This document shows, piece by piece, positions 31,195 through 34,635 of a DNA stretch of 35,431 nt (its first letter is position 1; every line of letters begins with the position of its first letter). The notes beneath the pieces are model-generated. The model worked only from the letters and a program-made list of their open reading frames with translations, was not told the origin of the DNA and ran no database searches. The position numbers and the translations under genes are program-made. Source of the stretch: an uncultured archaeon (GTDB taxonomy: Archaea; Asgardarchaeota; Lokiarchaeia; Sigyniarchaeales; SOKP01); contig CAZOYD010000001.1 of the NCBI GenBank assembly GCA_964583985.1, positions 1 to 35,431 on the forward strand. The letters are read 5' to 3'.

Positions 31195-31316
31195 AAAAAG
31201 AGGTAATTAGTTGATTAAATAATCGATAGAATAAAACTTTTTGGATTATATTTGAGATAAGAGGAAATCACATTTTTTAAAAAATGGTGCGCGGAGGGAG
31301 ATTCGAACTCCCGACC

Positions 31317-31347
31317 TTCGTTAATTTTGAATTAAATATTCAATATA
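31317..31347 (-). other. tRNA intron 2 (31 nt, about position 44/45)
   Basis: Central helix CGUG/AACG (3 of 4 pairs), inner stem TTGAAT/ATTCAA, ends in AA. Boundary ambiguous by 1 nt with the same product. Confidence 0.8.
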
Positions 31348-31363
31348 TACACGGTGTGAGCGT

Positions 31364-31391
31364 TTAACGTTTTTATATGAGATATAAAAAA
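31364..31391 (-). other. tRNA intron 1 (28 nt, position 28/29)
   Basis: Central helix AACG/CGUU, bulge AC|U, 9-bp stem TTTTTATAT/ATATAAAAA, 3' junction AA|A. Confidence 0.88.
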
Positions 31392-31558
31392 GTCGTTATA
31401 CCAGGCTAAACCATCCGCGCTTTTTTTTGTTCGGTTTAAAATATGATTTTCCTATTTATTAAAAAGTTATTAATCGAATTTAAGAGATTCTAAAGACTCA
31501 CTATCTATATTAGATCGATAAAATAAATATATCTACAAACTACTTGGAATAATCATGA

Positions 31559-33886
31559 TTGGTGATTACGTTATCTGAGAAATTTCTATCTCATCCACTT
31601 TTAAAAGAGAATACGGTTCTTAGACGTGCTTACCAAGAAGATATCTTTATTAATTGCTTAAACAAAAATTGTCTCGTTGTAATTCCAACGGGATTAGGTA
31701 AGACAATAGTAGCTCTCATGTTAGCCATACATAGACTTTCTGAAATTCCTGATTCCAAGATCGTTTTTTTAGCACCAACCAAACCATTGGTTGATCAACA
31801 TTATAAATCATTCATGGAATTGACAAAGATTGATAATGAAAGCTTACAATCAATAACTGGAACTACTCCTCCTGATAAAAGAAAAGTGTTGTGGAACGAT
31901 ATTAAAATTGCTTTTATGACTCCACAAGTATTGCAAAATGACTTAATTTCTAATATGTATTCGATCCAAGATGTTGCTTTGATTATTTTTGATGAGTGCC
32001 ATCGTGCAATTGGTGATTACGCTTATTGTTTTATAGCTCAGAAGTACATGGAATTATCAAAATCACCTCAGATTTTAGGATTAACTGCAAGCCCTGGATC
32101 AACAGAATTAAAAATAAACGAAATTAAATCGAACCTTTTTATTGACCACATTGAGATTAGAACGGATTCTGATAAAGATGTTAAACCTTACATTCAGAAG
32201 GTAGATAATGAATGGATCAAGATTCCTTTACCACCTGAATATATAGAAATTAAGAAACTCATCGTTGAAAAATTGAAAAAAGTCTATAAATTTCTTAAAA
32301 ATAGGGATTTATTGAATTCTTCTGATGTAAACAAGGTTTCTCGAAAAGATTTATTGAAATTAGATAAATTGATAAACAAAAGAATTTCTTCAACAAGAGA
32401 TGATGAAGCCAAATATGAGATGTTCATAGCCAAAAAACATAATGCTAATGCCATTCGGTTATCTCATATTGATGAATTGCTTGAAACTCAAGGAGTTAAT
32501 GCCCTTAAAGATTATATAGATAAGAATATTGCGAAAATAAAATCACGAACGGCGAATAAATCCTTAATCGAGTTATTTTCGGATTATGATTTTAAAAAAG
32601 TTATAGAATTAGTAGATATTGCGCAAGAAAATGGATTGGTGCATCCAAAATTAATTAAATTGAAAGAACTATTACATAATCAGATATGTGAAAATCAAGA
32701 ATCACGTATTTTAGTGTTTTGCCATTATCGAGATTCAGTAAAAAATATAGTCCAATATCTCAATAATGATCCTGAGATTAAAGCACACAAATTTGTCGGA
32801 CAACGCTCAAATGCTACAGATAAAGGCTTAAAACAGAAAGAACAGATAAAATTATTACAAGATTTCAAAGAAGGTATTTATAACACGTTAATAGGAACAA
32901 GTGTAGCAGAGGAAGGTCTTGATATCGCAGAATGTGACATGGTAGTTTTTTATGATGTGGTCCCTAGTGCTGTCAGATCGATTCAAAGAAGGGGTCGTAC
33001 AGGGAGGAAAAAGGAAGGGAAGGTTTTTATTTTAATAGCCGAAGGGACTCGAGATGAGGGATATTATTGGGCAGAAAAACATAAGGAAGAGAGCATGAAC
33101 AGAAATTTAAAAAAACTCAAGGATCCTGATTCGCTTCCTAAGGAACAAGCAAATCTAACTCAATATATTAACACCCCTGCTAAAAATGATTCAACAGAAA
33201 AAGTTATTATTAATTTAAAAGATAGATTTCGAGAAATTGATGATGCAATAGTAATTATTTGCGATACTAGGGAAACAAAATCCCCCGTAGTTAGAAAACT
33301 TTCCTTAATGGATGCTGAGATAAAATTAGAGCAGTTACTTGTTGCTGATTATATTATTTCGGAAAATTGTGGAATTGAAAGAAAAGCAGCTCAAGATTTC
33401 ACGGATTCTATTAAAGATGGTAGGTTGTTTAAGGAATTATTTGAGCTCAAGAATTTTTTTAATCAACCTATTCTAATTCTTGAAGGGGAACTTTTTACAA
33501 CTAGTTTCAATGAAAACGCTTTATATGGAGCGATATCATCAATAATTCTAAATTTAGGAATAAACGTGTATCGTACCGCTGATACCAATGAAACAGCCTC
33601 ATTTATTTATCATTTAGCGAAAAAAGCTCAAATAACTTCTAAAAGCGATTTTAAAATTAGATTTGAAAAAAAACCTTTTGATGATTCTGAATTATTAGAA
33701 TTTATTATCGCTGGAATTCCAGGTATTAACGCACTGCGAGCTAAAAATCTTTTAATGGAGTTTAAATCACTTCAAGGAATTTTTAATGCCGAAATCGATG
33801 ATTTGATTAAAGCTGAAAAGATTGGAAAGAAAATTGCAGAAGAAATTTTTAGAGTAAGTAGATATGAATATGATAAAGAGTTTTAA
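31559..33886 (+). CDS. hef: Hef (FANCM/XPF-like) helicase-nuclease
   Basis: PTGLGKT, DECH, TASPG, SVAEEGLDI, QRRGRTGR; ERCC4 nuclease DTRE/ADY/ERKAAQD; C-terminal HhH (IPGIN). Confidence 0.94.
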   Translation: MVITLSEKFLSHPLLKENTVLRRAYQEDIFINCLNKNCLVVIPTGLGKTIVALMLAIHRLSEIPDSKIVFLAPTKPLVDQHYKSFMELTKIDNESLQSITGTTPPDKRKVLWNDIKIAFMTPQVLQNDLISNMYSIQDVALIIFDECHRAIGDYAYCFIAQKYMELSKSPQILGLTASPGSTELKINEIKSNLFIDHIEIRTDSDKDVKPYIQKVDNEWIKIPLPPEYIEIKKLIVEKLKKVYKFLKNRDLLNSSDVNKVSRKDLLKLDKLINKRISSTRDDEAKYEMFIAKKHNANAIRLSHIDELLETQGVNALKDYIDKNIAKIKSRTANKSLIELFSDYDFKKVIELVDIAQENGLVHPKLIKLKELLHNQICENQESRILVFCHYRDSVKNIVQYLNNDPEIKAHKFVGQRSNATDKGLKQKEQIKLLQDFKEGIYNTLIGTSVAEEGLDIAECDMVVFYDVVPSAVRSIQRRGRTGRKKEGKVFILIAEGTRDEGYYWAEKHKEESMNRNLKKLKDPDSLPKEQANLTQYINTPAKNDSTEKVIINLKDRFREIDDAIVIICDTRETKSPVVRKLSLMDAEIKLEQLLVADYIISENCGIERKAAQDFTDSIKDGRLFKELFELKNFFNQPILILEGELFTTSFNENALYGAISSIILNLGINVYRTADTNETASFIYHLAKKAQITSKSDFKIRFEKKPFDDSELLEFIIAGIPGINALRAKNLLMEFKSLQGIFNAEIDDLIKAEKIGKKIAEEIFRVSRYEYDKEF

Positions 33887-33988
33887 GAAATATAACATTT
33901 TTAAATGTATAAGATTGATAAAAATATTTAACCATTACATTTTATATAATATTATAACTGAATTGAATTCTATATCACAAATAAGTTA

Positions 33989-34635
33989 ATAACTGGTGAA
34001 AATAAAATTATAAAATTTAAGGTTGTAGTCGCCGGAGCTAAAAGATAAATTTATTTCCGAATATCTCGGTTATTTAGTAAGATGTAGGGAAGACCTCCCT
34101 CATAAGGCGATATGCAACTGGTAAATTCGATAAATCAACGCTATCTACAATTGGAGTGGATTTTGAAACGAAGAAAGTGGTTGTAGATGGAACTGAGATC
34201 CTCCTAAACATCTGGGATTTCGCAGGTGAAAAGAAATTTAGGGAATTAATTCCTTCCTATGTATCGGGTGCTTCTGGAGCTTTAATATTATATGATCTTT
34301 CTAATAAAGAATCATTAGAGGATTTATATGATTGGATAAAAGTAATTGCTTCAATTCCGAATAGCCCAAAAACAAAGATATTAATTGAGGCGAAGATTGA
34401 CTTGGAAGATCAGAGAGAAATTAAAAAAGAAGATGCTAAAAAATTCTTCGAAAACCATAATTTCCAAGGGGATATTATAGGAGTATCCTCTAAAACGGGT
34501 GAAAACGTAGAATTAGCATTTGAGACGCTTGGTCGCGAAATTTTGAAGAGCTCATTGAAAAAATGCGTCAATTGTGGAAAATTCTACCCTCTTGAATTAA
34601 AATATTGTCAATATTGTGGTCAAAAAACACTCTAA
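33989..34635 (+). CDS. Rab-like small GTPase with a C-terminal zinc ribbon; interrupted gene, join(~33989..34042,34081..34635)
   Basis: Joined frame reads KFKVVVAGAK|DVGKTSLIRRYATGKFDKSTLSTIGVDF...IWDFAGE...AKID...SSK, then CxxC-x10-CxxC. No ATG/GTG/TTG in frame in exon 1; ATA 33989 is the assumed start. Confidence 0.8.
34043..34080 (+). other. putative 38-nt bulge-helix-bulge-type mRNA intron
   Basis: Central helix GCUA(34037-40)/UAGU(34075-78), junctions AA|A and AA|G, stems GAUAA/UUAUU and CCGA/UCGG; in-frame TAA at 34046-48. Confidence 0.78.

Follow-up and report, generated by a model that had tools for sequence, protein, structure and literature searches.

In a 35,431-nucleotide (nt) stretch of contig CAZOYD010000001.1 (the window), a gene for a Rab-like GTPase is interrupted within its P-loop by a 38-nt insert at 34043-34080. 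The window belongs to a draft metagenome-assembled genome (MAG) of 3.8 Mb in 138 contigs, from a genus of Loki-type Asgard archaea whose relatives are labelled Promethearchaeota. The insert is very probably an mRNA intron with a relaxed bulge-helix-bulge (BHB) motif of the HBh' class, carried by a functional gene. That it is removed from the RNA is almost certain; cleavage and ligation themselves we infer from the sequence. The original prediction had proposed a BHB intron in a functional GTPase mRNA, in a lineage that splices protein-coding RNAs. This view finds support in the restored junction, in the alleles of related species, in covariation, in the splicing machinery that the genome encodes and in inserts of the same kind in other genes.

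The interrupted GTPase gene and its predicted splice sites

The sequences encoding KFKVVVAGAK and DVGKTSL lie in different frames, and the gap between them is the 38 nt of 34043-34080, which contains a stop codon. The exon-1 frame (33962-34042, + strand) ends in IIKFKVVVAGAK, after which the codons AGA TAA come next. The exon-2 frame opens at 34081 (+ strand) as DVGKTSLIRRY and continues for 184 codons to the stop TAA at 34633-34635. The sole open reading frame (ORF) called automatically at this locus in the ORF listing starts at GTG 34156, encodes 159 amino acids (aa) and lacks the G1 motif, which confirms the layout first described. Excision of 34043-34080 restores the P-loop GAKDVGKT, with the predicted mRNA junction GCUAAA^GAUGUAGGG (here and below, ^ marks a cut or a junction), and the spliced gene encodes a protein of 196 aa. 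In the two closest orthologs (L011, 95% identical; L012, 90% identical), the intron is precisely absent and both read GCTAAAGAT, exactly the predicted splice product.

The predicted protein is a member of the Ras family (Pfam PF00071, 4.5e-38, 130.8 bits). Its G1 motif, GxxxxGK[ST], is complete only once the insert is removed, and WDFAGE (G3) and EAKID (G4-type) are encoded in exon 2. Among the 49 GTPase paralogs of the genome, a split P-loop is seen in just one, the window gene. The best PDB matches are Rab8A (1e-28), Rab14 and Rab1. The proposed Rab-like identity thus stands by best match and does not extend to the C-terminus, where no prenylation motif of the eukaryotic Rab type with C-terminal Cys was found. 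Instead, CVNCG...CQYCGQKTL forms a zinc-ribbon-like tail with a weak Pfam DZR match. The GTPase can be called Rab-like by its core domain only.

No ATG, GTG or TTG was found in frame between the stop at 33959-61 and the end of exon 1, and the window has ATT (34007) at the start position. At this position the 79 orthologs (L051-L130) carry ATG (50), ATA (14), ATT (9) or TTG (5). ATA or ATT occurs in 23 of the 79 ortholog species, 19 of these 23 are without any in-frame canonical start, and the ortholog start codon consistently lies 6-9 nt past a GGTG-type Shine-Dalgarno sequence. The start of the GTPase gene is probably non-canonical, not lost, and the orthogroup looks like a case of conserved non-canonical initiation.

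The cuts that the protein requires sit exactly 2 nt 3' of each strand of a 4-bp helix, AA^A at the 5' site and AA^G at the 3' site. These cuts and the pairings GCUA/UAGU, GAUAA/UUAUU and CCGA/UCGG had all been claimed, and all are present (Table 1). The protein allows seven excisions of 38 nt, three of which lead to one and the same mRNA; cuts after 34040 or 34041, with the 3' cuts matched, yield an mRNA identical to that obtained by cutting after 34042. We defined a strict motif as a 4-bp helix, 3-nt bulges and an inner stem of at least 5 bp. Its frequency genome-wide is 2.4e-4 per position and length, and in this neighbourhood its one match falls at exactly 34042/34080. The chance of finding a strict motif at a protein-compatible cut is about 0.002, a value that applies to the GTPase locus alone.

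In the mechanism that we propose, the gene would be transcribed with the insert included. GCUA, the four exon nucleotides ahead of the final AA of the Lys codon, would form a helix with UAGU, close to the insert's 3' end, and the inner stem GAUAA/UUAUU and the apical hairpin CCGA/UCGG would hold this 4-bp helix in place. A heterotetramer-type endonuclease composed of two EndA paralogs would cut 2 nt 3' of each helix strand, and RtcB would ligate the exons to GCU AAA^GAU GUA GGG AAG, restoring GAKDVGKT. The 196-aa protein would then be translated from the ATT start.

Intron-bearing and intron-less alleles

Most GTPase orthologs are uninterrupted at the P-loop. Besides the window, 3 of 80 species-level orthologs have an insert at the identical site: 38 nt in G022, 32 nt in G023 and 33 nt in G055, the last of which is in frame yet contains a TAA (loci with the insert present: L013, L015, L044 and L136). 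A degenerate pattern search of metagenome contigs yielded a fifth allele of 33 nt on JGI contig Ga0209636_10037302 and found the G023 allele again on JGI contig Ga0315542_1000028. An exact search of metagenome contigs for the 30-nt spliced junction gave 0 matches. The five alleles (the window's own, G022, G023, G055 and Ga0209636) are 38, 38, 32, 33 and 33 nt long and come from independent assemblies.

All exons are intact in the intron-bearing genes. Between the window and G022, the nonsynonymous and synonymous substitution rates (dN and dS) are 0.044 and 0.83 (dN/dS 0.053); between G055 and Ga0209636 they are 0.039 and 0.50 (dN/dS 0.077), with the differences evenly spread along the gene. 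By this measure the intron-bearing GTPase genes are under strong purifying selection, and the initial observation that the rest of the gene shows no decay holds.

In the five-allele alignment the BHB model pairs 90.8% of cells, compared with 18-48% for slid-partner controls. Compensatory changes are found at 4 pairs across the alleles. One of these, U-A to C-G, lies in the central helix, in which 95% of cells are paired in the five alleles and a further change turns G.U into G-C. The inner stem has 5 bp in the window and G022. In the 33-nt alleles it has 4/5, and two A-U pairs are replaced there by G-C as compensations; in G023 it has 3/5. Between the introns of G055 and Ga0209636, 5 of 33 positions differ; all of these are either unpaired or pair-preserving, and one turns A.C into G-C. 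The ortholog alignment put forward in the original prediction as a check on the intron has in this way revealed both intron-less alleles and compensatory changes in GCUA/UAGU. When three intron alleles were compared with the whole genome by blastn-short, nothing but AT-rich chance matches was returned, and the intron is, as far as its sequence tells, not a repeat or a member of a mobile family.

The gene tree unites the five species around the window in a clade that mixes intron-bearing and intron-less genes, and places G055 elsewhere. G022 (intron) and G001 (no intron) show 3 differences in 252 nt mid-gene and 26 differences over the opening 210 nt, where the intron site lies (12%; L053 vs L052 vs window). 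The 5' stretch of G022 is near that of the window, with 4 differences in 84 exon nt against about 15% elsewhere, and 4 differences in the 38 nt of the intron. This mosaic of divergence between G022, G001 and the window indicates that presence or absence of the intron was transferred on a short recombination tract, and suggests that homologous recombination exchanged the intron-bearing segment. We rejected the low divergence between the window and G022 introns as a sign of selection on the intron because the adjoining 84 exon nt are equally similar.

A second intron occurs in the ortholog of G010 (L045 / L074, JBHLON010000036.1). The P-loop of this gene is intact and intron-less, and a 30-nt insert starting with an in-frame TGA lies between LLNI and WDFAG, before G3. 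The insert corresponds to a textbook BHB (helix UAAU/GUUA, bulges AU^A and AA^A, 9-bp stem), and the cuts predicted by the rule give CUU AAU AUA UGG GAU, which is the uninterrupted sequence and restores LLNIWDFAG. The dN/dS of G010 against its intron-less sister is 0.038.

Competing folds and alternative explanations

Five sets of observations weigh against a BHB intron at this locus. (i) An outer exon-exon helix adjoining the 3' bulge was not found, and RNAalifold gives just a remote CGCC/GGCG helix. The outer helix had been described as weak; its weakness is borne out, to the point that there is no adjacent outer helix at all, and because of this the motif is assigned, by its sequence features, to the relaxed HBh' class, not to the canonical hBHBh' class. 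(ii) The BHB conformer is not the minimum free energy (MFE) fold (-4.5 vs -9 to -10 kcal/mol), the folding z-score is 0.00 for 34022-34100, and a single-sequence fold does not give the BHB. By these models, thermodynamics alone is uninformative on the BHB at this locus. (iii) Unguided RNAalifold prefers a continuous 6-bp helix, GCUAAA/UUUAGU (34037-34042 / 34073-34078), in which the 5' bulge nucleotides are paired. The 6-bp model pairs 96.7% of cells in the five-allele alignment, slightly more than the BHB model, is as stable as the BHB or more so (neither is the single-sequence MFE), and its helix is retained with covariation in all five alleles. (iv) The G023 allele pairs only 3/4 in the central helix, with one A.G mismatch, as well as 3/5 in the inner stem. 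(v) A genome-wide census is not enriched. The genome contains 136,097 strict motifs, and 805 of them pass a filter in which excision fuses two ORFs of at least 40 codons each, compared with 791-873 in frame-shifted controls, in which one of the cuts was moved by 1-2 nt. Fusions of neighbouring genes overwhelm the census, which is no measure of how many introns there are and served only for choosing candidates. Because it shows no enrichment, the genome-wide extent of such introns rests on individually verified cases, those in rpo1N, rnhB, nadE and leuS. A scan for inserts of the same geometry, likewise advanced at the outset, has delivered the inserts in nadE and leuS and no excess over controls.

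Central helix and hairpin are common to the BHB and 6-bp models, and two pairs set them apart, both A-U or one A-U and one G-C. The sequences give good support to the helix and to the geometry of the cuts; in our model the enzyme would bind the fold with the open 5' bulge, and the 6-bp helix could mask the 5' splice site.

The alternative that survives best is that the insert is removed from the RNA without EndA cutting at a BHB, by another endonuclease/ligase pathway that would recognise the 6-bp helix and the CCGA/UCGG hairpin. The five alleles do agree slightly better with the fold in which the 5' bulge is paired than with the BHB, and the G023 allele makes a poor BHB. However, only the BHB rule predicts protein-restoring cuts here, in G010, in rpo1N, rnhB and nadE and also in the adjacent tRNA, and no other candidate machinery was found. 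The two folds have their central helix in common, and the two A-U pairs by which they differ could breathe. We consider a separate pathway unlikely.

A pseudogene or a tolerated disruption, in which the full-length protein is not made, is less likely still. Such a reading would fit the broken frame and the lack of a canonical start codon, and an annotator would call just the 159-aa ORF from 34156. But between intron-bearing alleles the dN/dS is 0.05-0.08 at a dS of 0.5-0.8, no additional stops or frameshifts are present, and exon 1 is conserved along with the ATT/ATA start context. Moreover, inserts of the same type interrupt rpo1N, leuS and nadE, which cannot be dispensable.

We give equally little credence to a ribosome that bypasses the 38 nt in translation. 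The insert resembles those of T4 gene 60 and of the yeast mitochondrial byps, which are short, stop-containing hairpin inserts in otherwise intact ORFs, and it has a stop one codon past the take-off position and a hairpin in the gap. We rejected bypassing because matched take-off and landing codons are missing: the take-off codon AAA (34040-42) has no match, downstream there is only AAG at 34079-81, and landing there gives AUG UAG. In addition, inserts of the same geometry are found in the gene for a tRNA, an RNA that is never translated, and the length of the insert varies from 32 to 38 nt between alleles, yet the helix geometry is kept.

Finally, an assembly or binning artefact, for which a draft MAG of 138 contigs could give occasion, is hardly credible: because the same insert or a homologous one is present in independent assemblies (four species genomes, each assembled separately, and two JGI metagenome contigs), the insert is, on these sequences, real DNA.

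Splicing machinery, other interrupted genes and known systems

Splicing of the GTPase mRNA at a BHB would draw on enzymes that the genome encodes, namely two EndA paralogs (PF01974, about 206-208 aa), at G000 C4:51753-51977 and C3:71349-71597, and RtcB (3e-167), at C1:155665-156978. Asgard EndA has been reported to be an (alpha-beta)2 enzyme, with an L1 loop that is linked to broad specificity (PMC5829648); for the enzymes here, we take the L1 loop from the literature. The window also contains a tRNA-Val(CAC) gene with two BHB introns. Removal of 28 and 31 nt by the same cut rule leaves a perfect 74-nt tRNA-Val(CAC) cloverleaf as judged by ARAGORN. On the unspliced window ARAGORN found no tRNA, and the precursor is visible to Rfam only. 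From its sequence, we take this gene as a positive control, within the window itself, for the machinery of splicing. The introns of this neighbouring tRNA and their AA ends had been recognised correctly, and the boundaries then given for intron 1 appear displaced by 2 nt. Rfam detects just 23 tRNAs in the genome, whose completeness is scored at 100%, and the length of many is above 95 nt, which implies that tRNA genes in this Loki-type lineage would be heavily interrupted.

The inserts in other protein-coding genes follow the same rule (Table 1). In rpo1N, found without the motif, Pfam positions 2-73 and 74-312 are split by the insert and are contiguous across it. Those of nadE and leuS were found as candidates of the motif scan and were then upheld by Pfam. 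For candidates in dnaG, an AIR-synthase-family gene and a thiolase gene, Pfam backs the flanking exons only partly. Queried with PF00204, the DNA_gyraseB domain proved uninterrupted.

Taken together, we think it likely that this genus routinely interrupts protein genes, including those for the largest RNA polymerase subunit, LeuRS, NAD synthetase, RNase HII and a eukaryote-like GTPase, with BHB micro-introns of 28-38 nt. The tRNA-splicing machinery would remove these, and species would gain them, lose them and exchange them with one another on short recombination tracts; at the GTPase locus, the competing helix could make splicing conditional.

The closest known system is the cbf5 pre-mRNA intron of Crenarchaeota (Desulfurococcales, Sulfolobales), a short BHB-type intron, often with a relaxed motif, in hosts with hetero-oligomeric EndA (PMC2738675). 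Its patchy phylogenetic distribution implies gain and loss; its splicing has been shown experimentally, and it has been described as the sole confirmed case in its lineage (PMC2738675). The GTPase intron shares the short BHB form in an archaeal protein gene, the relaxed motif, the hetero-oligomeric EndA and the patchy distribution. It differs in lying in a Loki-type Asgard phylum and in splitting a Ras-superfamily GTPase in its P-loop, and in that its splicing is predicted from sequence and that the same genome also has inserts in at least rpo1N, rnhB, nadE and leuS. Non-canonical tRNA introns with relaxed BHB motifs (HBh', hBH, BHL) are cut by (alpha-beta)2 or epsilon2 EndA, and Asgard tRNA genes are heavily interrupted (PMC5829648; bioRxiv 10.64898/2026.10.13.758758). 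With these introns the GTPase intron has in common the 4-bp helix, the cuts 2 nt 3' of its strands, the inner stem, the length range of 28-38 nt and the enzyme set; in contrast to them, its substrate is an mRNA without a tRNA body to aid recognition.

A likeness by analogy only exists to HAC1/XBP1, where the Ire1 endonuclease and either a tRNA ligase or RtcB remove a short frame-changing mRNA intron without the spliceosome, and splicing acts as a switch. The splicing proposed here likewise pairs a short frame-changing mRNA intron with a protein endonuclease and a ligase of the tRNA type. The two systems part ways in their nuclease and in the motif recognised, which for Ire1 consists of twin 7-nt loops. 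Nothing at the GTPase locus indicates regulated splicing, and the on/off switch raised in the original prediction stays a conjecture.

The preprint on Asgard tRNA introns makes no mention of protein-coding genes (bioRxiv 10.64898/2026.10.13.758758). A search of the open-access literature, whose scope makes the result no proof of absence, turned up no account of BHB introns in protein-coding genes of Asgard archaea; the Asgard occurrence of BHB mRNA introns, and in many genes, appears to be unreported. The case for archaeal mRNA splicing independent of the spliceosome has so far come essentially from a single gene, crenarchaeal cbf5. Here, such introns would be present in a close archaeal relative of eukaryotes, in a eukaryote-like GTPase gene as well as in the essential rpo1N, leuS, nadE and rnhB, and both the lineage and the frequency would surprise specialists. 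If transcripts confirm the splicing, an Asgard archaeon has interrupted protein genes and obligatory mRNA splicing, which bears on the origin of intron-tolerant gene expression. Gene callers would then mis-annotate such genes as frameshifted, truncated or missing, distorting Asgard gene inventories, pseudogene counts and catalogues of eukaryotic signature proteins. The locus would also be a good test case for the arrival and departure of BHB introns, with five alleles, close relatives that differ in whether the intron is there, and an ortholog that carries a second one.

Table 1. Positions of the GTPase gene, its predicted intron and the tRNA-Val gene in the window, and of inserts in other protein-coding genes (G000, contig:positions)
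Feature	Position	Strand	Description
Candidate archaeal TATA box	33940..33949	+	TTTTATATAA; about 55 nt upstream of start codon, in 120-nt intergenic gap; candidate by position
Shine-Dalgarno-like GGTGA	33995..33999	+	7 nt upstream of putative start; GGTG(N) kept at such spacing in orthologs
Exon 1	34007..34042	+	12 codons, (I/M)IKFKVVVAGAK; non-canonical ATT start
Central helix H, 5' strand GCUA (exon)	34037..34040	+	pairs with 34075-34078
5' bulge AA^A	34041..34043	+	cut after 34042; both A's can alternatively pair with 34073-34074
Predicted intron	34043..34080	+	38 nt, 21% G+C; shifts frame; exon-1 frame meets TAA 34046-48
Inner helix h', 5' strand GAUAA	34044..34048	+	pairs with UUAUU 34070-34074
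Internal loop AUUUAUUU	34049..34056	+	unpaired, 8 nt; site of all 4 differences from G022; deleted in 32- and 33-nt alleles
Apical hairpin CCGA-AUAUC-UCGG	34057..34069	+	CCGA 34057-60 / UCGG 34066-69; in all 5 alleles; closing pair A-U, A.C or G-C
Central helix H, 3' strand UAGU (intron)	34075..34078	+	pairs with 34037-34040
3' bulge AA^G	34079..34081	+	cut after 34080; no adjoining outer helix
Exon 2	34081..34635	+	184 codons + TAA; DVGKTS, G2-G5, C-terminal CxxC...CxxC tail
tRNA-Val(CAC)	31288..31420	-	133-nt Rfam match; two BHB introns; 2.6 kb upstream of GTPase gene
tRNA-Val intron	31364-31391	-	28 nt, position 28/29; H AACG/CGUU, 9-bp stem
tRNA-Val intron	31317-31347	-	31 nt, position 44/45
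rpo1N insert	G000 C2:24757-24787	-	31 nt, frame-shifting; H GGAC/GUCU; rule gives GHFGH^IELARPV
rnhB (RNase HII) insert	G000 C1:127777-127806	-	30 nt, in frame with TAA, inside DEAGR^GP; 9-bp stem; central helix of four G.U pairs
nadE insert	G000 C85:7886-7915	+	30-nt BHB insert; excision joins NAD_synthase positions 143^144
leuS insert	G000 C64:4237-4266	-	30-nt BHB insert between catalytic core and editing domain
dnaG, AIR-synthase-family gene and thiolase candidates	G000 C26:12729-12759, C123:4513-4542, C2:124178-124207	+, -, +	30-31 nt; flanking exons backed by Pfam only partly

The gene upstream of the GTPase gene (31559-33886, + strand) encodes 775 aa from a TTG start, and its stop lies 120 nt before the GTPase start. 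By eye, its product resembles a Hef/XPF helicase-nuclease, with a DECH box and a C-terminal nuclease and helix-hairpin-helix (HhH)-like region.
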